DNA from: an uncultured Actinomycetes bacterium
GTDB taxonomy: Bacteria; Actinomycetota; Thermoleophilia; Gaiellales; JAICJC01
DNA: 64,000 bases
Direction of reading: 5' to 3'
NCBI GenBank assembly: GCA_963706075.1
Contig: CAVPLP010000002.1
Span: forward strand, 432,758 to 496,757
Numbering within the stretch: position 1 is the stretch's first letter; each line of letters opens with the position of its first letter. This document shows, piece by piece, positions 10,741 to 55,760 of this stretch. Made by a program: the position numbers and the translations under genes. The notes under the pieces are model-generated. The model worked only from the letters and a program-made list of their open reading frames with translations, had not been told where the DNA came from and made no database searches.

Positions 10741-11241
10741 AGCCCGTGCCGATCTCGATGTAGCGCGCGTGCGCCATCTGCGCGGCGTCGTCGTCCCCGG
10801 CCGCCTGCGCCCGCTCGATCTCGGCTCGCAGGTCGGCCAGCCGGCTCTCGAGGCGCAGGCCGAGGACGTCCTCCGGCGTGAGCTCGGACTCGCGGCCGAG
10901 CAGCCGAAGCGCCCGCGGCCGCCAGACATCCCGCAGCCGCCCGAGCGCCGGGTCGTCGCGAGGCCTCGAGCACCTCCCAGCCCCTCGTCGCCAGCGGCCG
11001 CAGCCGCCTCCCGCGCAACAACGGGGTCAGACCCCAATGTTGCGTCGCCGCCCGGGGCGATCCGCCCGCCGCAGGCGCACGGCTCGAGCAGCGGTGCGAC
11101 CTCGGACTCGATCCCCTCGCTCCCCAGCGTGAAGCCGTCCGCTCCGTTGAGCGCCAGGCGGACGAGTCCGACCTCGAGCGTGCGGGACGCCATGTCGTAC
11201 GCGGCGCCGCACGCCTCGCAGTGCCACGGATCCGCGGTCAC
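10715..11241 (-). CDS. Hypothetical CxxC...CxC protein with coiled-coil-like C-terminus (needs at least one frame change at ~10940-10975)
   Basis: MTADPWHCEACGAAYDM...EPCACGGRIAPGGD in the ORF 9802..11241 frame. A C-terminal part in another frame, DDPALGRLRDVWRPRALRLLGRESELTPEDVLGLRLESRLADLRAEIERAQ...YIEIGTGY, stops at 10715. It contains a palindromic-element copy at 11015-11043. Confidence 0.45.
11015..11043. repeat. Palindromic element copy 1 (GCAACAACGGGGTCAGACCCCAATGTTGC)
   Basis: Exact reverse complement of 34447-34475 (29/29). Lies inside the open frame of the hypothetical gene. Confidence 0.85.
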
Positions 11242-12056
11242 GCCGGCACCGACGCGCCGACGAACTCGGCAACCGCGACGCCGAACGAGTACGGCGCCTC
11301 GATCATCGGCATGTGGCCGACGCCGGGAAGCACGAGCTCCTCGCCGGCGAGCGCCTCGGCGAGGGCCGGCCCGTTCTCCCAGCCGCTGCGGTCGTGCTCG
11401 CCCCAGATGATGAGCGAGCGGGCGCTGACCCGCTCGATCAGCGCCGGCAGGTCGAGCGATGCGAGCGCGGGCAGCACGCCCGGGACGATCGGCGCGGCCT
11501 TGGCCGCCCCGCGCAGGAGGCGCCGCGCGGCGGGAACGTCGAGGCCCTCCGTGCGCGACATGCCGACGAACCAGCCGAAGACGAGCTTACGAGGCAGGCG
11601 GCGCGTCGCGGCCGGCTTCTCCCACAGACGCTCGGTCGCCGCGATCGCGCGGTGAAACGGCATGATGAAGCGTGCACGGCGCAGGCTGAACGGGGCCATC
11701 CCCACGGGCGACGCGAGCACCATCGCCGACACCGGCCGCTCGGCCGCCCAGGTGATCGCGAGCGGCGCGCCGAACGAGTGGCCCACGACGGCCGGCTGAT
11801 CGACGCCGATCTGGTCGATGGCCTCGCCCATGAGCCGCACGGCCTCGGTGAACGAGAACGGGTCGAGCACGTCCGAGTCGCCGTGGCCGGGCACGTCGAC
11901 GGCGATCACGCGGTGCGAGCGGCCCAGCCGCTCGGCGAACGGCGCCCAGTAGTCGAGCGAGCCCGTGAGCCCGTGCAGGAGCACCACCGGGTCGCCCGCA
12001 CCCCACTCGGCCACGTTGACACGGAGGCCGTCCACAGCGAGGGTTTGCGCATGCAT
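11238..12056 (-). CDS. Alpha/beta-fold hydrolase
   Basis: ATG at 12056 within ORF 11238..12701. VVLLHGLTGS, nucleophile elbow VGHSFGA, and C-terminal GVGHMPMIE. TAGTTT box (12064-12069) lies 7 nt upstream of the ATG. Confidence 0.85.
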   Translation of the reverse strand: MHAQTLAVDGLRVNVAEWGAGDPVVLLHGLTGSLDYWAPFAERLGRSHRVIAVDVPGHGDSDVLDPFSFTEAVRLMGEAIDQIGVDQPAVVGHSFGAPLAITWAAERPVSAMVLASPVGMAPFSLRRARFIMPFHRAIAATERLWEKPAATRRLPRKLVFGWFVGMSRTEGLDVPAARRLLRGAAKAAPIVPGVLPALASLDLPALIERVSARSLIIWGEHDRSGWENGPALAEALAGEELVLPGVGHMPMIEAPYSFGVAVAEFVGASVPA

Positions 12057-12920
12057 GGCACGGAAACTACCAGCCCCGGCGATGCCGACGAGTACCGTCG
12101 GCGCAGCTACAGAAATTGGCAGCACGCCGCCGCCGGGTGGGAGCGCGAGCGGGAGGCCCTGCAGGCGGCCATGGGGCCGCTGACCGACTGGATGATCGAG
12201 CGCCTGGCCCCCGAGCCCGGCCAGACCATCCTCGAGCTCGGAGCCGGCACCGCCGAGACGGGGCTGATCGCCGCAGGGCGCGTGTCGCCCGGCGGGCGGG
12301 TCATCGTGAGCGACCGCTCGACTGAGATGCTCTCCGCGGCAGAGCGCCGGGCAGCCGAGCTCGACCTGACCAACATCGAGCTCCGCGTGATCGACATCGA
12401 GGCGATCGACCTCCCTGACGCCGCCGTCGACGGCGTGATCTCGCGGATGGTGCTCATGCTCGTCCCCGACATCGCCGCCGCGCTCGGCGAGATCCACCGC
12501 GTCCTTCGCCCCGGCGCCCGGCTCTCTGCGGCGGTGTGGGACACGGTGGAACGAAACCCCTGGGCGCCGGTGTTGTGGGACGTGATCGAGCGGATGACCG
12601 ACATCCCTCAGGCGCGTCCGGGCGGCCCCGGCATGTTCACGCTGGCCGACGCCGGCCGGCTGCGCTCGCTCCTCGAGGCTGCCGGGTTCGGCGAGATCCA
12701 CATCGAGTCGATCCCCGTCGCCTGGAGCTACCCTGACTTCGAGACGTACTGGCGGACGCAGTCCTCCCTGAACGGAGCGATCACGCAGCTTCTCCCGACG
12801 CTGCCGGACGCCGATCGCAGGCGGATCGCCGATGCCGTCCGCCAGGCCGTCGAGCCCTTCCGGACGGGAAGCGGCTACAGCGCTCCGGGCTCGGCGCTGG
12901 GCATCGTCGCCACACGGTGA
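12051..12920 (+). CDS. Class I SAM-dependent methyltransferase
   Basis: ATG at 12051 within ORF 11313..12920. ILELGAGTAETG motif I, VDGVISRMVLMLV, and LRPGARL. Its start codon overlaps the divergent hydrolase start in the palindrome ATGCAT. Confidence 0.8.
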   Translation: MHGTETTSPGDADEYRRRSYRNWQHAAAGWEREREALQAAMGPLTDWMIERLAPEPGQTILELGAGTAETGLIAAGRVSPGGRVIVSDRSTEMLSAAERRAAELDLTNIELRVIDIEAIDLPDAAVDGVISRMVLMLVPDIAAALGEIHRVLRPGARLSAAVWDTVERNPWAPVLWDVIERMTDIPQARPGGPGMFTLADAGRLRSLLEAAGFGEIHIESIPVAWSYPDFETYWRTQSSLNGAITQLLPTLPDADRRRIADAVRQAVEPFRTGSGYSAPGSALGIVATR

Positions 12921-12940
12921 TCATCTAGAGTCTCGCGGCC

Positions 12941-13654
12941 GTGCCGATCCACCTGCGCGCAGAACCGGGCGACTACGCGCCCGCCGTCCTCCTCCCCGGA
13001 GATCCTCTTCGGGCCGAGCGGATCGCGCGGGAGTTCATCGACGACGCCCGCCAGGTGAACGGCGAGCGCGGCATGCTGGGCTACACGGGCACGCACCAGG
13101 GCCGGCCGGTGTCGGTGCAGGCGACCGGCATGGGCTGCCCGAGCGCCGCGATCGTGGTCGAGGAGCTGATCCAGCTCGGCGTCAAGCGGCTGATCCGCGT
13201 CGGCACGTGCGGCGGCCTCTCCCCGAAGCTTGCGATGGGCGATGTCGTCGTCGGCATCTCGGCCGTCCCCGCCGATCGCACCGCCCTGCACTACACGGGC
13301 GGCGAGCCGCACGCCCCGACCGCCGACTTCGGCGTCACCCACGGGATCGTCCACGCCGCCAAGGGCATGGACATCCGGCCGCACGTCGGCGCGATCGTCA
13401 GCTCCGACACGTTCTACGACCCCGACCCCGAGCGGCACCGCCGCTGGGCCGCCCGCGGCGTCCTGGCCGTCGAGATGGAGGCCGCCGTGCTCTTCACGAT
13501 CGCCGCTCTGCGCGGAGTCGAGGCCGCGTGCGTGCTGGTCGTCTCCGATCTGGTCGGCGGCGAGGAGTTCGTCCGCATCTCCGACGAGGAGCTCGCCGCG
13601 GCCGTGGAGCGGATGACGCGGCTGGCCCTCGCGGCCGCGGTGGACGACCATTAG
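12941..13654 (+). CDS. deoD: Purine/uridine nucleoside phosphorylase (PNP/UDP family 1, DeoD-like)
   Basis: 237-aa ORF: LLPGDPLRAERIA...GYTGTHQGRPVSVQATGMGCPSAAI...RVGTCGG...VEMEAAVLF. Confidence 0.85.
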   Translation: MPIHLRAEPGDYAPAVLLPGDPLRAERIAREFIDDARQVNGERGMLGYTGTHQGRPVSVQATGMGCPSAAIVVEELIQLGVKRLIRVGTCGGLSPKLAMGDVVVGISAVPADRTALHYTGGEPHAPTADFGVTHGIVHAAKGMDIRPHVGAIVSSDTFYDPDPERHRRWAARGVLAVEMEAAVLFTIAALRGVEAACVLVVSDLVGGEEFVRISDEELAAAVERMTRLALAAAVDDH

Positions 13655-13673
13655 CCACCCGGTCACCGGGGTC

Positions 13674-14582
13674 ATGGTCGTGAACCCGGCCTCCGCCAAC
13701 GGCCGCACCGCGCGCCGGTGGCCGGAGATCGCCCGCGCCGCCGCCGGGCGAGGCCTCGACCTCGACGTTCGCGCCACCGAAGCGGCCGGGCACGCGTCCG
13801 AGCTGACGCGCGCCGCCCTCCGTGAGGGCGCGGGTCTGATCGTGGCCGTCGGCGGCGACGGCACGGTGTCGGAGGTCGCAAACGGGTTCTTCGACGGCGA
13901 CGTGCCGATCAACCCCGAGGCGGAGCTGGCCGTGATCCCGCGCGGGTCGGGATGTGACTTCGTGAAGACGTTCGGGATCCCGAAGAAGGTCGACGGCGCC
14001 GTCGAGGCCGCCGCCGGGACGGCCGTGCGGACGATCGACCTCGGCCGCGTCCGGTTCACGGACTGGGACGGGCGGCCGGCGGCACGGATCTTCTGCAACG
14101 TCGCGAGCGCCGGGCTGACCGGCGTCGCCGCCGATCGGGTCAACAGGTCGGGCAAGCCGCTCGGGGCGACCGTCGCCTTCGCCTGGGGCACGATCGTGAC
14201 GTTCGTCGGCTACCGCAACAGCAGGTTCCGCGTGCAGATCGACGAGCGCGAGCTCGACCAGGTCTGCAACAACGTGATCGTCGCGAACTGCCGTTTCTAT
14301 GCGAGCGGGATGAAGATCATGCCGATGGCAGACCCCGGCGACGGCCTGCTCGACGTGCTGGTATGGGGCGACGTCGGCAAGGCCGACCTTGCCCGCAACC
14401 TGCACAGGCTCTACCGGGGCACGCACATCGGCCACCCCAAGGCCGACATCAGCCGCGCCCGCCGGGTGACCGTCGAGACCGACGTCACGCTGCCGATCGA
14501 GGCCGACGGCGAGACGCCGGGCGTCACGCCCGTCACGTTCGAGGTCGTACCCTCGGCGCTACGGCTGCGCGTTCCGGCCTAG
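13674..14582 (+). CDS. Diacylglycerol/lipid kinase family protein (YegS/BmrU-like)
   Basis: 302-aa ORF: VNPASANG...VAVGGDGTVSEVANG...IPRGSGCDF...EADGE. Confidence 0.85.
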   Translation: MVVNPASANGRTARRWPEIARAAAGRGLDLDVRATEAAGHASELTRAALREGAGLIVAVGGDGTVSEVANGFFDGDVPINPEAELAVIPRGSGCDFVKTFGIPKKVDGAVEAAAGTAVRTIDLGRVRFTDWDGRPAARIFCNVASAGLTGVAADRVNRSGKPLGATVAFAWGTIVTFVGYRNSRFRVQIDERELDQVCNNVIVANCRFYASGMKIMPMADPGDGLLDVLVWGDVGKADLARNLHRLYRGTHIGHPKADISRARRVTVETDVTLPIEADGETPGVTPVTFEVVPSALRLRVPA

Positions 14583-14887: not shown

Positions 14888-14938
14888 GAACCTCAATGTA
14901 CCAGCAGCATCGGACGGTTTTCCAGTACCCTCGCGGGG

Positions 14939-16167: not shown

Positions 16168-16234
16168 AGTCCCGAAAAACCTAGAGGACGGCCCTACACC
16201 CCGGCGCCAGCCCGGCCGATCCTTGCGTCGCACC

Positions 16235-20649: not shown

Positions 20650-21547
20650 CCACCCGGGCGAGGCACACCTGGTCGAGCTGGAGGACGGCGGCGTCCTGAA
20701 CGTCGTCGAGGTGGGGTCGGCGACCGGATACCCGCTGATGCTGCTCCACGGCGGCCCGGGGCTCGACCACCACGAGTTCCGGCCATGGCTCGACCCGCTG
20801 GCCGACATGGGCTTCCGGCTCGTCTACGTCGACGAGCGCGGCCAGGGGGCGTCGCCGCGGGTCGATCCGGCGTCGCTCACGCTCCAGGTCTTCTCGCACG
20901 ACATCGACCGGCTCGCGCGGGCGCTCGACCTCGAGGGCTACGGCGTCCTCGGCCACTCGTTCGGGGCGTTCATCGCCCTCTCGCACGCGCTTGAGCGAGG
21001 GACGGCCGACCAGTACGTGATCTCCTCGGGCGTCGCCTCAACGTCGGCGCTCATGGCCGACGTCGAGCGCGCGATCGACGCGTTCGAGCCGTCGTACCTC
21101 CGCGACCAGATCCGCAAGTCGTGGGACGACGAGCCGAAGCTGAAGACGGTCGAGCAGGCGCGCGAGGTGTCGGCCGCGCAGATGCCGTTTCACTTCTGGG
21201 AGATGGGCGACGCGTACAGCCGGTACATGCAGACCGACGACACGGTCTATGCACCCGAGGTGCTGGCCCACTTCGCCGCGAACGGCTACGGCAACTTCGA
21301 GTGGCTCGACCACCTGCGCTGGATCTCGAAGCCGATGCTCGTCATCACCGGCCGGGGCGACCGGGTGTGCACGGTCCCGAGGTCGGAGGAGATCCACCGC
21401 GAGGTCGACGGGTCGGAGCTGGTGGTCGTCGAGAAGGCCGCGCACATGACGTTCGTCGAGCAGCCCAAGATCTACCTCGACGCGGTGCGCCGCTGGTTCA
21501 TCCGGCAGGGCGCGATCCCCGACCCGAACGCCCCGCCTCCGGAATAG
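20642..21547 (+). CDS. Alpha/beta hydrolase (proline iminopeptidase-like)
   Basis: 301-aa ORF: LMLLHGGPGLDH, YVDERGQG, GHSFGAFIAL, and EKAAHMTFVEQP. Confidence 0.85.
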   Translation: MADHPGEAHLVELEDGGVLNVVEVGSATGYPLMLLHGGPGLDHHEFRPWLDPLADMGFRLVYVDERGQGASPRVDPASLTLQVFSHDIDRLARALDLEGYGVLGHSFGAFIALSHALERGTADQYVISSGVASTSALMADVERAIDAFEPSYLRDQIRKSWDDEPKLKTVEQAREVSAAQMPFHFWEMGDAYSRYMQTDDTVYAPEVLAHFAANGYGNFEWLDHLRWISKPMLVITGRGDRVCTVPRSEEIHREVDGSELVVVEKAAHMTFVEQPKIYLDAVRRWFIRQGAIPDPNAPPPE

Positions 21548-21548: not shown

Positions 21549-21581
21549 CTGAAAAATCGGGGTCAGACCCCAATCTTTCAG
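21549..21581. repeat. Palindromic element copy 2 (CTGAAAAATCGGGGTCAGACCCCAATCTTTCAG)
   Basis: Fills the gap between the convergent stops at 21547 (+) and 21582 (-). A-run, GC core, T-run on both strands. Confidence 0.85.
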
Positions 21582-21797
21582 TCAGCGGCGGCGGGCGCGG
21601 CCGGCGCGCACCGACTTCTGGAAGACGCCCATGATGACCTCGGGCAGGCTCGATCCGGTCGCCGTGACCTCTTGGACGCCGCGGATCGCCACGGCGCGGG
21701 TTCCGCCTCGCTGGATTCGCACCTGCCAGCCGGCCAGCTGCATCATCGTGATGAGCAGGATCCCGCTCCCGGGCGCGTATGTCGTCATCGGGTCCAC
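21582..21797 (-). CDS. Hypothetical small protein
   Basis: 71-aa ORF directly downstream of the nitrilase-family gene on the same strand. No recognisable motif. Confidence 0.35.
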   Translation of the reverse strand: MDPMTTYAPGSGILLITMMQLAGWQVRIQRGGTRAVAIRGVQEVTATGSSLPEVIMGVFQKSVRAGRARRR

Positions 21798-21827: not shown

Positions 21828-22672
21828 TTATGTGTGAGCGGGGTGCGCGGTTTGGTAGAGATCGGGTCGTATGTGGAGAAGCGCCGGCAGCCGCTCACGA
21901 ATCGCCGTCTGCGCGTCGAGGTCGAGGTCGGCCACGATCACCCCGTCGCCCTCCGGCGACTGTGCGAGCACCGTGCCCCACGGGTCGATGATCATCGAGT
22001 GGCCGTAGCTCGGCTTGTCGAGGCCGCCCGGAGTCCCATGCTGGCCGGTGGCGAGCACGAAGGCCTGGTTCTCGATCGCCCGTGCCCGCAGGAGCACCTC
22101 CCAGTGCGCCATGCCCGTGTGGAGCGTGAAGTTCGACGGGATCGTGAGAATCCGCGCGCCGCGGTCGAGCGTGAGCGCCCGGTAGAGCTCGGGGAAGCGC
22201 AGGTCGTAGCAGACGGTCAGGCCGACCGAAACGCCGTCGAGCTCCGCCGTGACGAGGTCGCCGATCCGGGCGCGGTGCCGTCTGATTCGCGGTAGCTGAA
22301 TCCGCCGACGTCGACGTCGAACAGGTGGATCTTGGTGTAGGCGGCGATGCGCTCACCACGCCGGTCGAAGGCGAGCGAGACGTTGTGGACGGCGTCGTCG
22401 TCGGCGACGATCGCGATCGAGCCGCCGATGAGGTTGATGCCAAGGTCGCGCGCCCAGCCGGCCATCGCGTCGACCGTCTCGCCGCCGTCGATCCGCTCGG
22501 CCAGCGGACGCAGGCGCGGCCCGTCCATCCAGGCGTTCCACTTCTCGGGGAGGAGCACGACGTCGGCGCCGCGGCCGGCGGCCTCGGCGACGAGCGGCGC
22601 CATCAGCGCCACGTTCTCCGACTTGTCGGCCCGGGCCGAGAACTGGACGCAGGCTGCGCGGATCGTGCTCAC
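21828..22672 (-). CDS. Carbon-nitrogen hydrolase (nitrilase superfamily) protein (frame change at ~22258-22275)
   Basis: MSTIRAACVQFSARADK...VVLLPEKW...YTKIHLFD (ORF 22217..22672) continues, by my own translation upstream of ORF 21828..22112, as GDLVTAELDGVSVGLTVCYDLRFPELYR. That part carries the catalytic Cys, then AHWEVLLRARAIENQ. Confidence 0.8.
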
Positions 22673-23772: not shown

Positions 23773-23808
23773 CTGAAAAATTGGTGCCTGGCACCGATTT
23801 TGCATCAG
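23773..23808. repeat. Palindromic element copy 3 (CTGAAAAATTGGTGCCTGGCACCGATTTTGCATCAG)
   Basis: Lies between the hyuB end and the clpS start. The hyuB C-terminal frame reads through it without a stop, directly into the clpS frame. Confidence 0.85.
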
Positions 23809-25295
23809 CGGGGCCCCAGCCGCCGCCGCCCGGGGTGCGGATCTCGAGGACGTCGCCGGCCTTGAGGTCGAGGCTGCACTTCGCCGGCAGCCGGCGGCCG
23901 TTCAGGCGGTTCTGGCCCGGTGCCCCGTCCTCGCCGCCTGCGGCGCCGCGCGGGCCGTGGCGGCGGCGCTCGGTCATGAGGCCCAGGCGGCAGTCGGCCA
24001 GCACGCGGTAGACGCGCACCACGCCGTCGCCGCCGCGATGCACGCCGGCGCCGCCCGTCCGCGGCCGCAGCGCGTAGCGCTCGATCCGCAGCGGATACTC
24101 GCGCTCGAGCGCCTCGATCGGCGTGTTCAGCGTGTTCGACATCGCGACGTGGACGGCGCTCGGCCCGGGCCCGGCCGGCCCGCCGCCCTGGCCGCCGCCG
24201 AGCGTCTCGTAGTAGGTGAACCCCGGCGTCCCGAACGTGACGTTGTTCATCGTCCCCTGGCCATGTGCGGGGACGGGCACGGCCTTGCCGAGCAGCCGAC
24301 ATGACGACGTCGACGATCCGGCTCGACGTCTCGGTGTTGCCGCCGACCACGGCACCCGGCGGCCTCGCGTTCACCAGGCAGCCCTCCGGCGCGACCACCT
24401 CGACCGGGACGAACGCGCCGCCCGACGCCGGGATGTCGGGGTCGCACACCGCCCGCACGCAGAAGTAGACGGCCGACCGCGTGACGGCGATCGGGCAGTT
24501 GACGTTCCCGGGCTGCTGCGGCGCCGTCCCCTCGAAGTCGGCGCGCACGCGGTCGCCCTTCACCGTCACTCGCACGCGGATCGGCACGTCGCGCGTGTGG
24601 GTGCCGTCGCCCTCGACCACGTCCTCGGCCTCGTACGACCCGTCGGGGATCCGCCTGATCCCGGCCCGGATCCGGCGCTCGCTGTAGGCGTGGAGCTCGT
24701 CCATGCCGGCGAGGAGCGTCCGCCGCCCGAACCGCTTCGCCAATTGGCGCAGGCGGTCAGCGCCAACTGCCATGCACGCCTCCTGCGCGCGGAGGTCGGC
24801 CAGGCGCTCGGCCGGCTTTCGCATGTTGGCGACGAGGAGGGCGCGCACATCGCCGGTCAGCCGAATGGGCGGGATCACGACGCCCTCCTGGAGGAGCTCC
24901 GTGGCCCCGGCGGGCATCGAAGCGGGCTGCATCCCGCCGACGTCTGCGTGGTGGGCCCTCGAGCAGACGATGCCGAGGTCGTCGACGACGGCGACGAGCG
25001 TGATGTCGGGCAGGTGCGTGCCGCCCGTGTACGGATCGTTGATCGCCCACACCTCGCCGCGGCGCGCTCCGCAGGCCAGCACGGCCGCCACCGCGTCGGG
25101 CATCGCGCCCAGGTGGACGGGGAGGTGCTCGGCCTGGGCGATCATCCGCCCGCCCGGGTCAAAGACGGCGGTCGAGCAGTCGCGCCGCTCCTTGATGTTG
25201 GCCGAATGGGCCGAGCGGACGAGCGCCGCGCCCATCTCCTCGGCCACGCCGCGGAGGGCCGCCGCCAGCACCTGAAGGCCCGCCGGGTCGATCAT
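23805..25295 (-). CDS. hyuB: Hydantoinase B / oxoprolinase family protein (internal out-of-frame block ~23812-24298)
   Basis: MIDPAGLQVLAAALRGVAEEMG...AINDPYTGGTHLPD...NTETSSRIVDVVMSA (ORF 23805..25637) continues as LGKAVPVPAHGQGTMNNVTFG...TPGGGGWG in the ORF 23447..24355 frame. ATGA overlap with the hyuA stop. Confidence 0.85.
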   Translation of the reverse strand: MIDPAGLQVLAAALRGVAEEMGAALVRSAHSANIKERRDCSTAVFDPGGRMIAQAEHLPVHLGAMPDAVAAVLACGARRGEVWAINDPYTGGTHLPDITLVAVVDDLGIVCSRAHHADVGGMQPASMPAGATELLQEGVVIPPIRLTGDVRALLVANMRKPAERLADLRAQEACMAVGADRLRQLAKRFGRRTLLAGMDELHAYSERRIRAGIRRIPDGSYEAEDVVEGDGTHTRDVPIRVRVTVKGDRVRADFEGTAPQQPGNVNCPIAVTRSAVYFCVRAVCDPDIPASGGAFVPVEVVAPEGCLVNARPPGAVVGGNTETSSRIVDVVMSAARQGRARPRTWPGDDEQRHVRDAGVHLLRDARRRPGRRAGRARAERRPRRDVEHAEHADRGARARVSAADRALRAAAADGRRRRASRRRRRGARLPRAGRLPPGPHDRAPPPRPARRRRRRGRGTGPEPPERPPAAGEVQPRPQGRRRPRDPHPGRRRLGPR

Positions 25296-31857: not shown

Positions 31858-32802
31858 ATGCCGCTTCCGCTCTCGCCCCCGGTCCTGCCGCAGCTCGCGC
31901 GGCCGGGGGCGGAGCTACCCGAGGGCGACGGATGGCTCTACGAGCCGAAGTGGGACGGCTTCCGGGCCATCGCCTTCGTCGACGGGGACGACGTCCACGT
32001 CCAGTCGCGAAACGGCAAGGCGCTCGGTCGCTACTTCCCCGAGCTGCGCTTTCCCGAGGGCCGCTACGTCCTCGACGGGGAGCTCGTCATCCGCACGCCG
32101 GAGGGCGGCGAGGACTTCGAGGCGCTCCAGGAGCGCATCCATCCGGCGGCCTCCCGAGTGGCGATGCTGGCCGAGAAGACGCCGGCCACATTCGTGGCGT
32201 TCGACATCCTCGCGCTCGATGACGAGTCGCTGCTCGAGCGGCCGTTCTCCGAGCGACGGCAGGTGCTCGAGCAGCACGTCTCGGACCCGGTTGAGCTGAC
32301 GCCGGCGACCGACTCGCCCGACGAGGCCCAGAAGTGGCTGCACGGCGCCGAGGGCGTCGTCGCCAAGCAGACCGGGGCGCCGTACCTGCCAGGCGAGCGC
32401 AAGGGCATGGTCAAGGTGCGGCGCACGCGCACGATCGACTGCGTCGTCATGGGCTGGCGGCCCGGAAAGGCAGAGGGCACGGTCGGCTCGCTGATCCTGG
32501 CGCTCTACGACGGCGACCAGCTGCGGCCGGTCGGCCACACATCCGGCTTCACCGCGGCCAGAGCACGCGAGCTGGTCGGCGTCGTGACGCCGTACGAGAC
32601 CGGCGAGCACGGGGCCAACGAGCCGAACCGCTGGAGCGCCGGCAAGGACGACCGTGAGTGGCGCGGCCTTCGCCCGGAGCTGGTCGTCGAGGTGACGTTC
32701 GACCACGTGAGCGGCCGCCGCATCCGCCACGGCACGCGCCTCGTCCGCTTCCGCGACGACAAGCCGCCGTCGGAGTGCCTGATCGCGCAGCTCGACTCCT
32801 AG
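31858..32802 (+). CDS. ATP-dependent DNA ligase (short LigC-like form)
   Basis: ATG at 31858 within ORF 30883..32802. Adenylation motif I YEPKWDGFRA, then LDGELV, FVAFDIL, EGVVAK, and MVKVRR. Confidence 0.9.
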   Translation: MPLPLSPPVLPQLARPGAELPEGDGWLYEPKWDGFRAIAFVDGDDVHVQSRNGKALGRYFPELRFPEGRYVLDGELVIRTPEGGEDFEALQERIHPAASRVAMLAEKTPATFVAFDILALDDESLLERPFSERRQVLEQHVSDPVELTPATDSPDEAQKWLHGAEGVVAKQTGAPYLPGERKGMVKVRRTRTIDCVVMGWRPGKAEGTVGSLILALYDGDQLRPVGHTSGFTAARARELVGVVTPYETGEHGANEPNRWSAGKDDREWRGLRPELVVEVTFDHVSGRRIRHGTRLVRFRDDKPPSECLIAQLDS

Positions 32803-32839
32803 CTGAAAAAACGGTGCCAGGCACCAATTTTCACCTCAG
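32803..32839. repeat. Palindromic element copy 4 (CTGAAAAAACGGTGCCAGGCACCAATTTTCACCTCAG)
   Basis: Starts 1 nt after the ligase stop and overlaps the convergent proS stop (32836-32838). Confidence 0.85.
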
Positions 32840-34446: not shown

Positions 34447-34475
34447 GCAACATTGGGGTCTGACCCCGTTGTTGC
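34447..34475. repeat. Palindromic element copy 5 (GCAACATTGGGGTCTGACCCCGTTGTTGC)
   Basis: Exact inverted copy of 11015-11043. Lies in the divergent region between proS and the TPP riboswitch. Confidence 0.85.
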
Positions 34476-34489
34476 ACTAAACTGCCGTC

Positions 34490-34588
34490 GAGCGTTTGCC
34501 GGGGAGCCCCGCAGGGGCTGAGAGGGTGCCGCAGAGGCGCCGACCCGCGAACCTGATCTGGGTAATGCCAGCGAAGGGATGCACGCAA
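34490..34588 (+). promoter_or_regulatory. TPP (THI-box) riboswitch
   Basis: GGGGAGCCCCGCAGGGGCUGAGAGGGUGCCGCAGAGGCGCCGACCCGCGAACCUGAUCUGGGUAAUGCCAGCGAAGGGA carries the hallmark CUGAGA, ACCUGAUCUGG-UAAU-CCAGCG and AGGGA blocks. It is followed directly by an ABC importer operon. Confidence 0.85.
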
Positions 34589-35294
34589 GTGAGCGAGGTC
34601 GTCGTCACCGACGTGACGAAGAGCTACGGGCCTGTCGAGGCGCTGGGCGGCGTGAGCCTCCGCGCCGGCGCGGGCGAGACCGTCGGGCTCGTGGGGCGCA
34701 GCGGCTGCGGGAAGTCGACGCTGCTTCGCATGATCGCGGGCCTCGACGCCACGGACGTCGGCCGGATCACGGTCGGCGGAGCCGACGACGAGCGCGGCCG
34801 CCTGGAGCACTGTGCCCTCATGCCGCAGGCCGACCTCCTGATGCCCTGGCGCGACGCTGTCGGGAACGCGTCGATCCCGCTCGAGAACGCGGGCGTCGAC
34901 CGGAGCGAGGCACGCCGGCGGGCGGCGGAGCTCTTCGCTGAGCTCGGGCTCGACGGCTTCGAGCGGGCACGATCGTGGGAGCTCTCGGGCGGGATGCGCC
35001 AGCGGGTCGCGTTCGCGCGCACGCTCCTCGCCGAGAAGCCCGTGCTCCTCCTCGACGAGCCCTTCGGCGCGCTCGACGCCATCACGCGCACCGAGATGCA
35101 GGAGTGGCTCGCCGGCGCGCTCCACGCCCGGCCGCGAACAACCGTCCTCGTGACCCACGACCTGGACGAGGCGCTGCGATTGTGTGACCGCGTGGTCGTC
35201 CTGACCGCCCGGCCCGGCCGCGTCGCCTGCGAGCTCGACGGCGCCGGGCCCGGCCGAGTCCGCCCGCGAGCAGGCCCTGGAGACGCTTCGATGA
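34589..35294 (+). CDS. ABC transporter ATP-binding protein, ThiZ-like (frame change at ~35236-35255)
   Basis: GTG at 34589. Walker A GRSGCGKST, signature LSGGMRQR, Walker B LLLDEP. In the +1 frame the end reads ...PAESAREQALETLR with its TGA overlapping the permease ATG (ATGA at 35291-35294). Confidence 0.85.
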
Positions 35295-36040
35295 GCCGCC
35301 CGCGAATCGGCTGGGCTGTCGCCCTCCTCGCGATCCTGGCCGCCTGGCAGGCCTGGGTGCGCCTGCGCGATGTGCCCGACTACCTGCTGCCCGCCCCGAC
35401 CGACATCCTGAACGCCCTGTGGGACGACCGGAGCAGGCTCGCAACCGACGCCGCGCACACCGCGGGCGAGATGCTCGCCGGCTTCGCCGCGGCGGTCGGG
35501 TTCGGCCTCGTGTCCGCCGCCGCCCTGCACTTCTCGGCGACGCTCCGCCGAGCCGTCTACCCCCTCCTCGTCGCCTCGCAGAGCGTGCCTGTCGTGGCGA
35601 TCGCGCCGGTCCTCGTCATCTACCTCGGCTTCGGGCTCGCGCCCAAGGTCGTGATCGTGGCGCTGGTCTGCTTCTTCCCGGTGACGGTGAACGCGCTCGA
35701 CGGCCTGCGCTCGGTCGACCCCGAATACCTGCGCGTGATGCGCACTCTGCGGGCCTCGCGGGCGGCGACCTTCCGCCGCGTCGAGGTGCCGTGGGCGCTG
35801 CCGTCCGCGTTCTCGGGCGCCCGCGTGGCGGCGTCCTACGCCGCCGTCGCAGCCCTCTTCGCCGAGTACGCGGGAGGCTCGTCGGGCCTCGGCGAGACCA
35901 TGCAGACCGCAACCGCGCAGCTCGACGCTCCTCTGGTCGGCGCGGCGGTCGTCGTGCTCGCGGCGCTGGCGCTCGCGCTCTTCGCGGCCGTCTCGATCGC
36001 CGAGCGAGTGGCGATCCCCTGGGCGAGGCGGGGAGCGTGA
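35291..36040 (+). CDS. ABC transporter permease, ThiX-like
   Basis: MSRPRIGWAVALLAILAAW... polytopic with an EAA-like loop (RTLRASRAATFRRVEVPWALP). GTGA overlap with the next gene. Confidence 0.85.
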   Translation: MSRPRIGWAVALLAILAAWQAWVRLRDVPDYLLPAPTDILNALWDDRSRLATDAAHTAGEMLAGFAAAVGFGLVSAAALHFSATLRRAVYPLLVASQSVPVVAIAPVLVIYLGFGLAPKVVIVALVCFFPVTVNALDGLRSVDPEYLRVMRTLRASRAATFRRVEVPWALPSAFSGARVAASYAAVAALFAEYAGGSSGLGETMQTATAQLDAPLVGAAVVVLAALALALFAAVSIAERVAIPWARRGA

Positions 36041-36999
36041 GGCTCCGCGCCGTGGCGGTCGCGACCCTGCTCCTCGCCGCTGCCTGCGGCGGGTCGTCGC
36101 CACCGAACGCGTCGCCACGCGAGGACGTGACGCTCGTGCTCGACTGGGTCCCGAACCCCGACCACGTGGGGATCTACGCGGCGATGGACAAGGGCTTCTT
36201 CGCGCGAAACGGCCTCACGGTCACGCCGCGGCCGCCGTCAGGCGTGTCGGACGCGCTGACGCTCGTGGGGGCCGGCCGGGCCGACGTGGGCATCTCGTAC
36301 GAGCCGGAGCTCTTCTTCGCGCAGGAGCACCACGCGCCCGTCGCGGCGGTCGCCACCGTCGTGCCGACTGCGCTCGCCTCGATCATCGCCGCCGGATCGA
36401 GCGGCATCCGCACGCCGGCCGACCTGCGCGGGAAGACGATCGGCGTGGACGGCACCCAGAGCACCGCCGCCTTCGTCGACAAGGTGCTCGCGAGCGCCGG
36501 CCTCGGCGCCGGCGACGTCCATCTCGTCGACGTCAAGTTCAACCAGGTCCCGGCACTCCTCGGCCACAAGGTCGATGCGGTCGCCGGCGTGTTCCAGAAC
36601 ATCGAAGGAGTGCTCTTCGCCATGCGCGGCCTGCACCCGGTCGTCTTCCCGTACGACCGCTACGGCGTGCCGCCATACGACGAGCTGGTGGTCGTCGCGA
36701 ACGCCGACCGGCTGCGCGACGACACGGCCTACCGCGCCACGGTGCGGCGGTTCGTCGCCGGCCTCGCCGCCGGCACGGACTGGGCCAAGGCCCACCCCGA
36801 TGCCGCGGTCGCGGTGATGCGCGGACATTCCGCCGACGACTACCGGAACGTCCTCGAGCAGAGCGTCCCCGCCACCCTCCGCCTGCTCGGCACCGGCCCG
36901 CCGCCCGAGGTCGCGTGGGCCCGGTTCGGCGCGTGGATGTTCAGGTCGGGTCTGCTGGACGCCAGGCCGGACGCGGCGGCTCTCATAGCCCAGCCCTAG
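36037..36999 (+). CDS. ABC substrate-binding lipoprotein, NMT1/THI5-like (ThiY-like)
   Basis: GTG at 36037 within ORF 35419..36999. Lipobox LLLAAACGG, then TLVLDWVPNPDHVGIYAAMDKGFFARNGL. Confidence 0.85.
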   Translation: MRLRAVAVATLLLAAACGGSSPPNASPREDVTLVLDWVPNPDHVGIYAAMDKGFFARNGLTVTPRPPSGVSDALTLVGAGRADVGISYEPELFFAQEHHAPVAAVATVVPTALASIIAAGSSGIRTPADLRGKTIGVDGTQSTAAFVDKVLASAGLGAGDVHLVDVKFNQVPALLGHKVDAVAGVFQNIEGVLFAMRGLHPVVFPYDRYGVPPYDELVVVANADRLRDDTAYRATVRRFVAGLAAGTDWAKAHPDAAVAVMRGHSADDYRNVLEQSVPATLRLLGTGPPPEVAWARFGAWMFRSGLLDARPDAAALIAQP

Positions 37000-43020: not shown

Positions 43021-43103
43021 GCGCGTTCTCGGCGAGCGCGTTGGACGAACTATGGACGACGCCGCCGCCCGAATGGCGGCGGCGTCGCATGGTTAGGCCG
43101 ATT

Positions 43104-43134
43104 AGAGCTATCGGGGCGCCGAGATTTGAACTCG
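43104..43134. repeat. att-like direct repeat (tRNA-proximal copy)
   Basis: Covers the T-arm and acceptor 3' strand of tRNA-Pro plus 7 nt beyond its 3' end. Identical to 42112-42142. Confidence 0.85.
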
Positions 43135-43184
43135 GGACCTCACCGACCCGAACGGTGCGCGCTACCAGGCTGCGCCACGCCCCG
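43111..43184 (-). tRNA. tRNA-Pro (anticodon CGG)
   Basis: Hand-folded cloverleaf, 74 nt: CGGGGCG-TG-GCGC-AGCCTGGTA-GCGC-G-CACCG-TTCGGGT-CGGTG-AGGTC-CCGAG-TTCAAAT-CTCGG-CGCCCCG-A. C1-G72 is typical of bacterial tRNA-Pro. No encoded CCA. Confidence 0.9.
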
Positions 43185-44425: not shown

Positions 44426-44457
44426 CCCATCGAGCGAAGCCGCTCGGTGGGTTTTCT
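44426..44457 (+). terminator. Intrinsic terminator
   Basis: CCCATCGAGCG-AAGC-CGCTCGGTGGG forms an 11-bp stem with one G-U, followed by TTTTCTCGTT. Confidence 0.7.
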
Positions 44458-48540: not shown

Positions 48541-48543
48541 ATC

Positions 48544-50635: not shown

Positions 50636-50653
50636 CGCCTGTATCGTGCGGGG

Positions 50654-52029: not shown

Positions 52030-52508
52030 GTGCGCGAGGCCTGCGAGCTCATGACCGCCGACAACCGCTCGAGGCTGGCGGACGGCCACTGCGTCTTCGT
52101 GTCGTAGTACACGCCGAACGCCGGCACAGCCTCTGGGATCGTGACCCAGGGCAGCTTGGACCTCGTGAAGATGTGGACGTCGGGCCTGGCCAGCGACGGG
52201 TCGTCAAGCGTGCCGCCGCGGACGAATCGCACCTCCGGCCGGCTGTACAGGCTGTAGACCGCCACCTGGCACGTGGGGCACCGGAAGATGCGCTGGGTCG
52301 AGCCGTCGTCGCGGGGCACATCGACCGGCTGCGGATCACCCGCGACGAGCTCGACCCGGTCGGCCTCGATCAACAGGTTGATCGCGTAGGCGCTTCCCGT
52401 CTGCCGCTGGCAGCTCAGACAGTGGCAGCAGTGCGTGAACATCGGCTCGGACGTGAGCCGGTAGCGCACCGCTCCGCACGAGCAGCCACCCTCGGTCGGA
52501 TACGACAT
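52026..52508 (-). CDS. GFA-family (glutathione-dependent formaldehyde-activating/CENP-V-like) zinc protein
   Basis: 160-aa ORF: GGCSCGAVRY...THCCHCLSCQRQTGSAY...FRCPTCQ. Confidence 0.85.
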   Translation of the reverse strand: MSYPTEGGCSCGAVRYRLTSEPMFTHCCHCLSCQRQTGSAYAINLLIEADRVELVAGDPQPVDVPRDDGSTQRIFRCPTCQVAVYSLYSRPEVRFVRGGTLDDPSLARPDVHIFTRSKLPWVTIPEAVPAFGVYYDTKTQWPSASLERLSAVMSSQASRT

Positions 52509-52526
52509 GGCGCAAGCGTACTCGGC

Positions 52527-54279
52527 TCACGCCGGCTGGAGGGGCCGAGCACCGAGCGCGCTCGCCATCGAGCGATGCGCGGCTCCGGTGCCGACGAGCA
52601 CCGAGCGGGACGGGTCGACGCCGTGGGCCCGCGCGAACGCGAGCGGAAGGCCCGGAAGCGGCGGCCGGCACCAGCAGCGCGGCGGTCCGGCGGCGTGCGG
52701 GCAGAGCGCGGCCTCAATCGGCCCTGAGACCACCGCGGCAAGACGGCGGGTCGCGCCGTCGAGCGCGGTGCGGTCGCCGTCCGGGTTCCAGTCGAAGACC
52801 AGGTGCGGCGCGTCGGCCGTGGCCCCGGCGAGGGCGTGCTCCCACCCGTCGCGATGGAGCGCCGCCGCCGCGACGAACACGCCCGCCACCGTTCCCTCCG
52901 GGTTCGGCGCGCGCGCGAACGCTCGCCGTTCGACGCTCGCGAAGCCCTCGTCATCCCCGGGCGGCTCGAGCTCGCGAACGGTGCGCATCTGCGACGTCGG
53001 CGTGAGCAGGCCGGGCTCGCGCCGGGCCAGCTCGCGCAGCGTGGCGGGATCCGGGAGCGAGCCGCAGCGGTCGAGGAGGCGCTCGACGAGGTTGATCTGG
53101 GCCTGCGCGAGCGGCGTGTCCAGCCAGATGCAGCGCGCCGAGGCGCCGTGCCGGCCCGCGATCTCGACGACCTCGTTGCGTGCGGCCCGGGTGAGGTACG
53201 TGTTGTCGAGGACGATCTGCCGCGTGCCCGCGGCCAGCGCGTCGTCGAGGGCACCTGCGACGTCGCGCAGCGAGCCGCCGCGCTCGTCGCGGTTCAGGCG
53301 CAGGTAGCCGCGGGCGACGTGCTCGTCCGCGATCCGGCTCTTGCCCGCGCCGGGGATGCCCATGACGATCACGATGTCGGCAGACGCTGCCGTGCGCGAG
53401 CGCTTCGCCCGGGCGGGATCTGACAGCCCGAGTGCGCGACCGACCGCGGCGCGCTGCTCGGCGTCGAGCCGAAGCCCGGCGGCCGCCGCAGCGGAGCGGG
53501 CCGTCTCGGGGCGCCGCGCACCGGGGATCGCCACCACCACAGGCGACAGGCCGAGCAGCCACGCGAGCGCGACCTCGGCCGGGCTCGCGGCGAGAGCGCC
53601 CGCAACGGCGACGAGCGCGCCGTTCCGTCCCAGGCGCCCGGCGCGCTTCGGGCCGCCCAGCGGCGAATGGGCGATGACGGCGATCCCGGCCTCGGCACAT
53701 CGATCGAGCACCCCGCCCCGCACGGCGCGGTCGTCGAACGGGCTGAGACCCACCTGGACGGCTGCGATCGGCGCGAGCTCGAGCGCCTCGTCGAGCTGGC
53801 GGCGGTTGACGTTGCAGACGCCGACCCGCCGCGCCAGTCCCTCCTCGCCGATCCGGGCCAGCGCCCGCAACGACGTGCGCCACGGCGTCCGCGGATCGGG
53901 TGCGTGGAGGAGGTAGGCGTCGATCTCGAGGCCGTCCAGCGCGACGAGGCTCGCCTCGCATCCGGCCAGGATGGCCTTCGCTCGACCGTCCGGGACCCAC
54001 GCTCCTCGGGTTCGGGCCATGCCACCCTTCGTCACGATCCGCGCGCGTCGCTTCGGCGCCCGACCGGCGCAGGGCGCCGGCCAGCAGGCGCTCGTTGTGC
54101 CCGAGCTCGCCTTCGTCGCGGCCGTAGGCGTGGGCGGTGTCGAAGACCGTTACGCCCGCCGCCGCCGCGGCCGCGATCGTCTCGAGCGCGACCCCCTCGT
54201 CGCGTCCGTCGTCGGTCGAGAGGCGCATGCAGCCGAGGCCGATCCGAAGCTCCGATGCTTCGAGCCACCCGGGCTCCAT
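52527..54279 (-). CDS. Fusion protein: aldo/keto reductase + P-loop (PNK/AAA_33-like) kinase + degenerate HAD-like phosphatase domain (frame change at ~54036-54046)
   Basis: MEPGWLEASELRIGLGCMRLS...FDTAHAYG...NERLLG (ORF 52951..55716 frame) joins RIVTKGG...LLHAPD...AIPGARRPE (ORF 52527..54035). Next come VIVMGIPGAGKS...LDNTY, then CPHAAGPPRCWCRPPLPGL...VLVGTG. The expected DxDGT is replaced by VAAAAL. Confidence 0.7.
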
Positions 54280-54284
54280 GCGGC

Positions 54285-55058
54285 CTACCCGAGCTGCCAG
54301 CGGGCGATCTCCTCGAGGGCTCCCGCGCTCGTCAGGTCGAGGTGGATCGGCGTGACGGCGATCTTGCCCTCGGCGACCGCTCGGAAGTCGGTGTCGGGCT
54401 CGTCGTGGTAGGACGGGTCGTCGCCGTAGATGCGGTAGCGGCGGCGGCCGGCGTCGTCCGACTCGAGGTCGAGGCGGTCGCGGTAGATGCGGCGGCCGAG
54501 CCGGGCCACCTCGACCCCCTGCACCGGAGGCGGCGGAGCGTTGACGTTGAGGATCGTCCCGGCGGGGAGGCCATGCTCGGCGATCTGCCGGACCAGCGCG
54601 GCCAGGATGCCGGCGGCCGGCGAGAAGTCGTACCGGCGCTGGCGGCGGAAGTGCAGCCCCGCCTCCTGCGACTGCTGCGAGACGGCGATGGCGGGGATGC
54701 CGAGCACGATCCCCTCGAACGCGGCGGCGACGGTGCCCGAGTACGTGACGTCGTCGCCCAGGTTCACGCCGTAGTTGATGCCGGCCACGATCAGGTCCGG
54801 GCGCTCGCCGACGAGCCCGAGCTCGGCGAAGCGCACGCAGTCGACGGGCGTTCCGTCGGTGGCGAAGCCGCGCGTCCCATCGCGCAGCTCCACCTCGGTC
54901 ACGGTCAGCGCCCGGTCGATCGTGATGCCGCGGCCGACGGCGCTCCGATTCGAGTCGGGCGCGATCACCGAGACGGTGCCGACCTCGTCGAGCGCCTCCT
55001 TCGCGGCGAACAGGCCGCGGGAGGTGATGCCGTCGTCGTTCGTAAGGAGGATGCGCAT
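54285..55058 (-). CDS. surE: 5'/3'-nucleotidase SurE
   Basis: 257-aa ORF: MRILLTNDDGITSRGL...APDSNRSAVG...GINYGVNLGDDVTYSGTVAAA. Confidence 0.9.
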   Translation of the reverse strand: MRILLTNDDGITSRGLFAAKEALDEVGTVSVIAPDSNRSAVGRGITIDRALTVTEVELRDGTRGFATDGTPVDCVRFAELGLVGERPDLIVAGINYGVNLGDDVTYSGTVAAAFEGIVLGIPAIAVSQQSQEAGLHFRRQRRYDFSPAAGILAALVRQIAEHGLPAGTILNVNAPPPPVQGVEVARLGRRIYRDRLDLESDDAGRRRYRIYGDDPSYHDEPDTDFRAVAEGKIAVTPIHLDLTSAGALEEIARWQLG

Positions 55059-55698
55059 GCCAGGCGAAGGTTACGAGGCTCGCCGGTATCGTGCCCGGGT
55101 GCCGTCCCGCGGGCCCGCATACCGGATCGTCACGAGGCGCCTCGTGGTCCGCTGCTGGGAGCCGCGCGACGCCCCGCTCCTCAAGGACGCGATCGATTCG
55201 AGCCTCGACCATCTCCGCGCGTGGATGCCGTGGGCGCAGCACGAGCCCCAGACGCTCGCCGAGAAGGTCGAGCTTCTGCGCGAGTTCCGGGGGCAGTTCG
55301 ACCTCGGCGCCAACTCCGTCTACGCGATCTTCGACGCCGCTGAGGAGCGCGTGCTGGGCGGCACCGGCCTCCACCCGCGGATCGGCCCCGGCGCGCTCGA
55401 GATCGGCTACTGGATCCGGGCCGACGCCACCGGCCGGGGCTACGCGACCGAGTCGACGGCCGCGCTCACGCGGGTGGCGTTCGAGGTGGCCGACGTGGAC
55501 CGGGTCGAGATCCGGTGCGCGCCTGCGAACCTCGCGAGCGCCGCCATCCCGCAGAAGCTCGGATATGCGCTTGTTGAGTCGGGCGAGGATCTGATCTTCG
55601 CCATCGCGAAGGGCGACTTCCCCGGGAGCCCGTCGGCGGCGACGCCGCTCGCCGCCTACGACGTCGTGGGGGCGGCGTTGGTCGACGGCCTGGGGTGA
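55057..55698 (+). CDS. GNAT-family N-acetyltransferase (RimJ/RimL-like)
   Basis: ATG at 55057 with AAGGAGG 6 nt upstream, within ORF 54775..55698: TRRLVVRCWEPRDAP...IGYWIRADATGRGYATEST. Its start overlaps the divergent surE start (CATG). Confidence 0.8.
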   Translation: MPGEGYEARRYRARVPSRGPAYRIVTRRLVVRCWEPRDAPLLKDAIDSSLDHLRAWMPWAQHEPQTLAEKVELLREFRGQFDLGANSVYAIFDAAEERVLGGTGLHPRIGPGALEIGYWIRADATGRGYATESTAALTRVAFEVADVDRVEIRCAPANLASAAIPQKLGYALVESGEDLIFAIAKGDFPGSPSAATPLAAYDVVGAALVDGLG

Positions 55699-55727
55699 AA
55701 CATTGGCATCAGGCACCGCTGTTTCAG
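55695..55727. repeat. Palindromic element copy 6a (GTGAAACATTGGCATCAGGCACCGCTGTTTCAG)
   Basis: Overlaps the GNAT stop codon. First unit of a head-to-tail dimer. Confidence 0.8.
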
Positions 55728-55760
55728 GTGAAACATTGGTACCTGGTACAGGTGTTTCAC
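55728..55760. repeat. Palindromic element copy 6b (GTGAAACATTGGTACCTGGTACAGGTGTTTCAC)
   Basis: Second 33-nt unit. It ends 2 nt before the convergent truA stop (55763). Confidence 0.8.

Follow-up and report, generated by a model that had tools for sequence, protein, structure and literature searches.

A window of 64,000 nucleotides from the genome of an uncultured actinobacterium of the order Gaiellales (class Thermoleophilia; contig CAVPLP010000002.1, positions 432,758 to 496,757) carries seven copies of a palindromic element of 29-37 nt. These elements are very probably the repetitive extragenic palindromes (REPs) of a system with a REP-associated tyrosine transposase (RAYT). The account developed below is likely to hold as a whole, in which they form a Gaiellales/Thermoleophilia 'REPtron', are spread by the transposase, and in one subtype have a secondary role as transcription terminators. 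The type of element is known, and the protein belongs to a large family already labeled RayT by JGI. The family of repeats is new: it is without the GTAG/CGTC tag, has no match in Rfam, and no mention of it was found in the searchable literature, which does not prove that none exists. A first-pass annotation of the window had likewise not recognized it as a named repeat family.

The seven copies, c1 to c7, were oriented on the strand that reads ATTGG and align without gaps. Flanking genes were named by Pfam, and gene ends were taken from a simple caller based on codon-position G+C, which was validated on Pfam-identified genes.

c1, 11015-11043, minus strand: GCAAC-armed copy, GCAACATTGGGGTCTGACCCCGTTGTTGC on the minus strand; in frame within a gene of 175 aa (ORF175), upstream of tilS-hpt-ftsH.
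c2, 21549-21581, minus strand: GAAA-armed copy with core GGGGTC/GACCCC; between the convergent stop codons of an alpha/beta-hydrolase gene (21545-21547) and a small open reading frame (ORF; 21582-21584).
c3, 23773-23808, plus strand: copy with core GGTGCC/GGCACC; in the space that separates the end of hyuB from the start of clpS, two genes encoded on the minus strand.
c4, 32803-32839, minus strand: copy with core GGTGCC/GGCACC; at the convergent stop codons of an ATP-dependent DNA ligase gene (32800-32802) and proS (32836-32838), the latter overlapped by the element.
c5, 34447-34475, plus strand: GCAAC-armed copy; in the divergent region between proS and an ABC transporter operon controlled by a thiamine pyrophosphate (TPP) riboswitch.
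c6, 55695-55727, plus strand: GAAAC-armed copy with the degenerate core GGCATC A GGCACC; the TGA of its arm (55696-55698) is the stop codon of a GNAT acetyltransferase gene.
c7, 55728-55760, plus strand: GAAAC-armed copy with core GGTACC/GGTACA; abuts c6, and the truA stop codon (55763-55765) begins just past it, with 2 nt between.

A check of the window sequence verified each of these copies, with the layout that the first-pass annotation had described, and a profile built from them returned exactly the same seven loci (E = 1e-9 to 2e-8; next match E = 4). The pattern ATTGG-N4-W-N4-CCG has six exact matches in the window as against 0.31 expected, a number reached in 0/100 shuffles, and c1 and c5 are the same 29-mer in opposite orientations. 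The consensus reads T-G-(A/C)-A-A-(A/C)-A-T-T-G-G-(G/T)-G-(T/C)-C-(T/A)-G-(A/G)-C-(C/A)-C-C-G-(T/A)-T-(T/G)-T-T-(T/G)-C-A. At the gathering threshold, an Rfam scan of the window returned the TPP riboswitch and a tRNA only, with no family for the copies; permissive Rfam scans near c2 and c3 and of proteobacterial clusters gave just sub-threshold generic hairpins. In this DNA of 71.7% G+C, the copies are AT-rich, with 16-17 A or T per 30 nt as against a window mean of 8.5 ± 2.3. They are not the most AT-rich short tracts, as had been claimed, since the segment 16117-16146 in a divergent gap exceeds them with 21 of 30 nt (AACTGCAAAAATTGCAACAAACACAGATTT); this tract holds the arm-like words TGCAAAAATTG and GCAACA without a palindrome.

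The ATTGG strand forms a hairpin of 14-16 bp. The proposal that the two core halves stay complementary and preserve this hairpin by covariation was borne out by 87 distinct family copies from the Gaiellales lineage. Paired cells make up 86.1% of the alignment as against 76.8 ± 0.7% in shuffles (0/500), and the covariation score is 0.256 as against 0.115 in shuffled alignments (0/500) and 0.02-0.09 with slid partners. In all, six pairs of the stem covary. Pairs 5/35 (UA 48, CG 15), 7/33 (CG 41, AU 30), 10/30 (CG 44, AU 27), 16/24 (GC 64, UA 14) and 18/22 (UA 62, CG 14) all switch on both sides. Furthermore, the arm types TGAAAAA.../...TTTTTCA and TGCAACA.../...TGTTGCA differ by exactly two pairs, and both intermediates were found with matching partners. 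Part of the covariation signal reflects repeat subfamilies.

The asymmetry between ATTGG and CCG has also proved real. Pair 13/27 is T.G in 82 of the 87 copies and pair 12/28 is a T.T mismatch in 63; this wobble and this mismatch are conserved without compensation. A recount on 25 copies outside the selection for ATTGG...CCG gave T.G 20 times, C-G five times and T-A never, so the irregularity is a kept trait. Because of it, the ATTGG strand folds (as RNA) into the more stable hairpin in six of the seven window copies, for instance at -17.1 vs. -14.5 kcal/mol on the opposite strand for c1/c5, and at -20.3 on the minus strand vs. -12.6 on the plus strand for c2; the hairpin of c6 is weak on either strand (-8.4/-9.8 kcal/mol). 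This asymmetry makes better sense as a strand-specific mark for recognition by a transposase than as an RNA feature. The center base (T or A), considered as a second mark of orientation, was dropped, with a ratio of just 15:10 in the unselected copies. Neither a GTAG nor a CGTC tag occurs in the 87 aligned copies, in which the bases outside T5/G6...C34/A35 are variable.

The first-pass annotation had proposed looking for a RAYT/IS200-like transposase gene, and such a gene does stand between inverted copies in relatives, which we denote by L numbers. The search covered loci with two inverted copies 0.6-2.2 kb apart. In L045, a Thermoleophilia metagenome-assembled genome (MAG), the ORF at 6988-7689 encodes a protein of 233 aa that matches Pfam Y1_Tnp (PF01797; 40.6 bits, cut-off 23). 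Its best NCBIfam model, at 77.2 bits and over model positions 8-146 of 146, is NF047646 (REP-associated tyrosine transposase), and its sole match in the PDB is E. coli TnpA_REP (4ER8). The protein contains the HUH motif PNHYHLLVE and the tyrosine motif VVRYLAANPV, H60, H62 and Y119 being invariant in the RAYT alignment, and bears a C-terminal extension resembling a helix-turn-helix (HTH; Pfam HTH_23, sub-threshold). The gene lies between inverted elements of the family, one about 70 nt upstream and the other overlapping the TGA stop codon in its arm. Another MAG, L131, encodes a RAYT 89% identical to that of L045 in the same flanking layout. Elsewhere in both MAGs, contigs that are colinear with the window over 6-7 kb, at 86-89% nucleotide identity, hold elements at the c2 and c3 slots.

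Similar arrangements, with hairpins whose core is the same or related, were found outside the Thermoleophilia. In a Clostridia MAG (L052), inverted GAT(C/T)GGGGTC-W-GACCCCGATC hairpins stand on either side of the RAYT gene, whose stop codon is the central TGA of the core. A Bryobacterales MAG of the Acidobacteria (L079) encodes a RAYT between inverted ATTAAATTGG(T/C)GC...GCACCA hairpins, and the inverted repeats that flank a 46% homologue (L132) contain GGGGTC / AGACCCCAAT. NF047646 is the top model for all five proteins, and those of L052 (88.2 bits) and L132 (85.2 bits) pass its curated cut-off of 80. Moreover, in L110, a MAG with a ProS 95% identical to that of the window, a RAYT remnant ends in a GGTGCC-type element; at 5286-5800 its C-terminal half is intact and the N-terminal part is inverted beside a partial element; either the gene is decaying or the assembly is wrong at the repeat. 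We infer from these relatives that the source genome itself has a RAYT gene.

This architecture closely recalls the REP/BIME (bacterial interspersed mosaic element) and RAYT systems of E. coli, Pseudomonas and Stenotrophomonas. There, as here, imperfect palindromes occur in many copies, mostly just 3' of ORFs in convergent and unidirectional gaps, with termini that may supply a stop codon, occasional intragenic copies, G.T pairs and conserved stem irregularities. The proteobacterial rayt genes, like those of the relatives studied here, stand between two inverted copies, one of them at the stop codon, and encode HUH and tyrosine motifs with 4ER8 as the best PDB match. Indeed, rayt genes have been described as always lying between two inverted REPs, often directly 3' of the stop codon (PMC2817692). 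The differences are that those hosts are proteobacteria and the present host is a deep-branching actinobacterium, that the RAYT here carries the HTH-like extension, that most copies in the window stand singly and not as BIME or REPIN doublets, and that one subtype here bears a true U-tract.

The elements had been described as sitting exactly at gene ends. This holds for c2, c3, c4, c6 and c7, all of which abut stop codons, but not for c5, in a divergent promoter region, or for the intragenic c1. Three convergent gaps are filled by elements as had been reported (c2, 21547/21582; c4, 32802/32836; c6 and c7, 55698/55763). Among the 11 convergent gene pairs of the window, eight overlap or lie at most 19 nt apart, and the other three, with gaps of 34-64 nt, are exactly those that hold an element. 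We also placed 98 copies in 574 kb of related DNA, at loci selected for carrying a copy and including some orthologous sites: 42 copies are convergent, 28 tandem, 10 divergent (four of them at one orthologous site), eight 'genic' and 10 at locus edges. Of the 80 classifiable copies, 42 occupy convergent gaps, although these account for only 13% of the intergenic length. Most copies in this related DNA lie within 10 nt of a stop codon, as do 26 of the 35 GAAA-armed ones; those with GCAAC arms show more scatter. Between tandem genes, the stable strand runs antisense to them in a ratio of 20:8, and of 9:2 for the subtype with a U-tract (nominal one-sided binomial probability 0.018, orthologous sites included), a bias that fits counter-selection of strong terminators within operons. 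In the window, c3 has its stable strand antisense to both hyuB and clpS.

Homologues of the window's ProS identify the lineage as Gaiellales, and orthologous sites in relatives reveal how individual copies change. At the c2 slot, compared through L013 only, an orthologous copy is present. In L116 the TGA stop codon of hyuB stands directly before the c3 element, and in L094 the c3 slot holds a GGGGTC core and a second, degenerate unit (CTGCAATTCCGGGGTCAGGCACGCAATTGCAG), with about 250 extra bases between this unit and the canonical copy (L094:1737-2064). The c4 core is unchanged in L116 (ProS 99%), whereas in L117 and L118 (ProS 95%) ATCGGGGTCTGACCCGG replaces ATTGGTGCCTGGCACCG within nearly the same flanks; these two differ by six changes in 17 nt, four of which are two compensated pairs. 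The 29-mer of c5 is identical in L116, L117 and L118, while the adjacent intergenic bases vary. The c6 copy was found in L001, L002 and L004; c7 is absent from L001 and L002, and the second unit of L004 is a different one (GGCGTC/GGCGCC). Among strains with 100% identical RpoA the truA/GNAT gap varies, holding one unit, two units whose second cores differ, or unrelated palindromes. In L003 (5070-5250), again with an identical RpoA, it contains TGGACCTGGTCCA twice together with CTGAACCAGG...CCTGGTTCAC, which suggests that several REP-like families use slots of this type in common.

The c1 copy shows that an element can be accommodated within a protein. In the relatives L125, L126 and L127, an intact ORF of 175 aa lies between an alpha/beta-hydrolase gene and tilS, and its reading frame continues across the element (...PATLGSDPVVAR... 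or ...PEKLGSDPVFAR...), where the protein reads ...P(A/E)(T/K/Q)LGSDPV(V/F)AR...; the arm type at this site varies among near-identical strains. ORF175 of the window (10715-~11240, minus strand) has two 1-nt indels relative to L126. We considered c1 as a 29-nt gene-breaking insertion and rejected this, as the relatives read through the element and the frame break in the window comes from the 1-nt indels downstream. The ORF175 protein family is specific to Gaiellales. LGSDPV is present in all close members; in some distant members the element is inverted and in a different codon phase, giving PPFGVRPRF, and further ones lack both motifs. Family members of 175-197 aa (L126:2564-3091, L128:6001-6594, L129:6001-6570) have no Pfam match and share a CxxC...CxCGG N-terminus and a helical C-terminus, and their variable linker carries GGGG-N5-CCCC palindromes in every clade, differing in number, orientation and codon phase. 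The linker of L128 holds an exact 20-nt inverted doublet, and L129 has GGGGACTGTCCCC at the place of GGGGTCTGACCCC in L128, a compensated swap of T-A to A-T.

The suggestion that the elements act as bidirectional intrinsic terminators survives in part. Only c2 (minus strand), c3 (plus strand) and c4 (minus strand) have a U-tract, and they have it on the ATTGG strand only, where a G/C stem of 6-7 bp at the apex is directly followed by 5-6 U; on the reverse strand the stem has only 5 bp and the U-run follows after a gap of 2 nt. In c2 the tract UUUUUCAG stands directly 3' of the minus-strand hairpin. The reverse strands and the copies without a U-tract (c1, c5, c6 and c7), two of which lie away from gene ends, do not fit the suggestion. 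The family nevertheless supplies three of about four plausible canonical terminators in the window. The only other one, at 44427-44450 (plus strand), has a 9-bp stem followed by GTTTTCTCGT and is unrelated to the family. A further hairpin outside the family, at 43056-43088 (minus strand), is G/C-rich with 13 of 14 pairs and no U-tract; it lies 23 nt downstream of a tRNA gene (43111-43184, minus strand) and is of the 'I-shaped' kind. Judged from sequence, the U-tract subtypes could plausibly serve as terminators, in one orientation only. Whether the family has a host function at the RNA level is, in our judgment, evenly balanced.

Compared with ordinary Rho-independent terminators, c2, c3 and c4 are alike in their G/C stem, short loop, 5-6 U, opposite A-run and position 0-5 nt past stop codons. 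They are unlike them in that the copies have sequence as well as shape in common, C.A and A.A mismatches and a 2-nt spacer markedly weaken the reverse strand, and the family includes four of seven copies without a U-tract and two away from 3' ends.

We propose that the ATTGG strand, when single-stranded, would fold into a hairpin with an invariant ATTGG/CCG foot, an apical C-W-G and the retained T.G and T.T positions. By analogy with E. coli TnpA_REP, a host-encoded RAYT of the Y1 HUH type would read this strand specifically and cleave and rejoin it. The strand-specific activity of the E. coli enzyme needs conserved stem mismatches, and the T.G/T.T irregularity appears analogous to the bulge of the E. 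coli REP (PMC8266576). Cleavage and rejoining would spread, duplicate and reshuffle the copies, which would survive where they do little harm, namely just past stop codons, in convergent gaps, and now and then in a protein linker that tolerates them. After transcription as part of a 3' untranslated region, the U-tract subtype (TGAAAAATTGG...CCGTTTTTTCA; c2, c3 and c4) would take the canonical form of an intrinsic terminator in the ATTGG direction and that of a weaker hairpin in the other, and c1, c5, c6 and c7 would be 3' hairpins or pause sites at most.

Several observations weigh against this account. No RAYT gene lies in the 64-kb window, the scores of the L045 and L131 proteins (77.2 and 76.1 bits) fall just under the NF047646 cut-off, and the rearranged-looking RAYT of L110, the MAG closest to the window, may indicate a system that is decaying in this lineage. 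The two described REP super-families are defined by the GTAG/CGTC tag, and the present elements instead end in TGAAA... or TGCAAC.... Most of the Gaiellales copies in our statistics were gathered with a pattern that contains ATTGG...CCG, and some of them are mutually orthologous. Regarding termination, c6 and c7 stand behind the rpoA-rplQ-truA operon with no U-tract on either strand, and the antisense bias of 20:8 argues against a general role as terminator for the upstream gene.

The closest alternative accepts the REP/RAYT identity and denies any host function: the elements would be selfish or neutral, their position at gene ends would mark tolerated insertion in a compact genome (84% coding), and the terminator shape would be incidental. 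An intragenic c1, a c5 in a promoter region, four of seven copies lacking a U-tract and copy numbers that differ between near-identical strains are all in keeping with this, as are the convergent pairs, which overlap or abut (8/11) or hold exactly one or two elements (3/11), as if the gap were the insertion. Yet the c5 29-mer has stayed constant across relatives at 95% while its neighboring bases have not, every clade retains hairpins in the ORF175 linker, with one T-A pair exchanged for A-T by compensatory change, the U-tract subtype has the strongest orientation bias relative to transcription (9:2), and the family accounts for three of the roughly four plausible terminators of the window. 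We regard a complete lack of function as a minority possibility, though one to be taken seriously.

Far less probable is that ordinary bidirectional terminators evolved in place and became alike by convergent selection, without common descent or mobility. Such terminators would account for a GC stem between an A-run and a T-run, the location in convergent gaps and the paired changes that preserve the stem, but not for the same 29-mer at unrelated loci, the intragenic and promoter copies, invariant positions without structural value, or a T.G/T.T irregularity that weakens one strand, with just 5 bp of stem there and 2 nt separating it from the U-run. A Y1 transposase gene between copies of the same sequence in four lineages already largely refutes this explanation. 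We give even less credence to the idea, raised by the first-pass annotation, of protein-binding sites, here taken as double-stranded sites bound by a dimeric protein or as a signal for DNA uptake, with the hairpin as a by-product of dyad symmetry. The 13-bp dyad, its conserved outer GG/CC and the central C-W-G would suit a dimer, and pairs of DNA uptake sequences (DUS) or uptake signal sequences (USS) are known to form terminator stems (PMC1852404). However, uptake sequences are scattered singly, whereas the half-sites of 8-9 nt in the window (ATTGGGGTC, TTGGGGTC, ATTGGTGCC and TTGGTGCC) never occur alone, with 0 outside the elements and their 6-7-mers at or below expectation; moreover, the arms covary rather than stay conserved, the asymmetry is strand-specific, and no candidate binding protein recurs beside the copies. 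Across 111 loci, only common metabolic families recur as neighbors, a screen that missed the RAYTs because they are present in few loci. As for the earlier idea of REP- or MITE-like mobile palindromes (MITE, miniature inverted-repeat transposable element), the REP half stands, linked to a RAYT, and the MITE half was rejected: the whole element is a palindrome, and flanking direct repeats occur at the control level (11/87 vs. 9.7), that is, there are no target-site duplications.

Other small repeats offer partial parallels to the REP/RAYT family. In the DUS pairs of Neisseria and Pasteurellaceae (Kingsford 2007), a dispersed conserved oligomer likewise builds the stems of gene-end hairpins; there, in contrast to the present family, half-sites also occur singly, the conserved unit is not tied to a transposase, and for our elements no link to competence is known. 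The Rickettsia palindromic element (RPE) and REPs inside ORFs (Di Nocera 2013) resemble c1 and its orthologues, which are translated in a protein linker (LGSDPV, or RGLTP...FGVRPR), but RPEs are 100-150 bp long and Rickettsia-specific, and the insert here is of 33 nt (11 codons) and of an extragenic family. Bordetella 'Bor' repeats and the very small mobile repeats of cyanobacteria (Elhai 2008) are alike in their length of ~25-35 nt, high copy number, hairpin potential and lack of GTAG; for them, the texts consulted report no cognate RAYT flanked by the repeats.

The core of the hairpin is distributed beyond Gaiellales. A degenerate 21-nt core pattern matched at least 111 stretches in a species-level genome collection. 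Among the matches listed, the core is multi-copy in Gaiellales, Thermoleophilia and 'Actinomycetes' MAGs as well as in Burkholderiales, the isolate Massilia sp. TS11 and Allosphingosinicella. Clostridia, Shapirobacteria, Heyndrickxia and others have single matches, with basal arms that are of unrelated sequence and still complementary. The proteobacterial unit is a hairpin of ~23 nt, often in inverted or tandem clusters and biased to gene 3' ends. Five units with a period of ~259 nt in Allosphingosinicella (L076:878-1935) and seven with a period of 55 nt in Massilia sp. TS11 (L038:5676-6017) form arrays unlike the mostly single copies of the window. No transposase was found between the inverted copies in the Burkholderiales loci L005 and L030, which have ordinary genes and carry the copies in convergent gaps. 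As for carriers, there were 0 matches in 72,556 plasmids and one in 2.9 million viral contigs. The spread of the core across phyla is likely explained by its traveling with one RAYT clade. More tentatively, and with doubt prevailing, one RAYT clade (Y1 plus the C-terminal HTH-like tail) and its untagged hairpin, of near-invariant apex (AT[TC]GGGGTC-W-GACCCC[GA]AT or GGTGCC-W-GGCACC), may be common to at least Actinomycetota, Bacillota and Acidobacteriota; in compact high-GC genomes such as the present one, most canonical intrinsic terminators would come from the family, seeded by a domesticated transposase.

Some features around the copies stand apart from these questions. The c5 element ends 14 nt upstream of the TPP riboswitch (34490-34597, plus strand; Rfam 63.2 bits), which is followed by an ORF for an ABC ATPase and permease and a gene for an NMT1/THI5-like binding protein (34589-36999). 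Since a -10-like box, TAAACT (34478-34483), lies between the two, c5 would cover the -35/spacer region of the riboswitch promoter. The c6/c7 junction (55720-55735) reads TGTTTCAGGTGAAACA and agrees with the consensus of parS, TGTTNCACGTGAAACA, in 15 of 16 positions, the GAAAC-type arms being parS half-sites in swapped order; we treat this resemblance as a coincidence of arm and core sequence. The same probably applies to c3, where 23789-23804 reads TGGCACCGATTTTGCA (TGGCAC-N5-TTGCA) and is spaced and composed like a sigma-54 -24/-12 promoter; RpoN is not known from Actinobacteria. The frame of hyuB is shifted near 24290, 7 nt are absent before c3 (~23815) relative to L116, and a CN-hydrolase gene is broken into two ORFs (21828-22672). 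The split hyuB and CN-hydrolase genes and the indels of ORF175 are probably long-read indel errors, or else pseudogenes.

REP/RAYT systems have been characterized almost entirely in Proteobacteria, where they are defined by GTAG; here the same architecture is found in an uncultured, deep-branching actinobacterial order with an untagged hairpin, dispersed, as we infer, in hundreds of copies. The constant parts of this hairpin, that is, the ATTGG/CCG foot, the T.G and T.T positions and the C-W-G apex, offer a hypothesis of substrate recognition by this RAYT clade. If a single clade is indeed shared across phyla, this would mean either horizontal spread of the transposase-hairpin pair or an extremely conserved recognition code. 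For genome annotation, the family accounts for spurious peptides (…LGSDP…, …GVRPRF…) and aids the setting of gene ends in Thermoleophilia MAGs. For the organism itself, these repeats shape a compact genome by providing stop codons, filling every sizeable convergent gap of the window, placing terminator-shaped hairpins, and becoming part of a translated protein linker.

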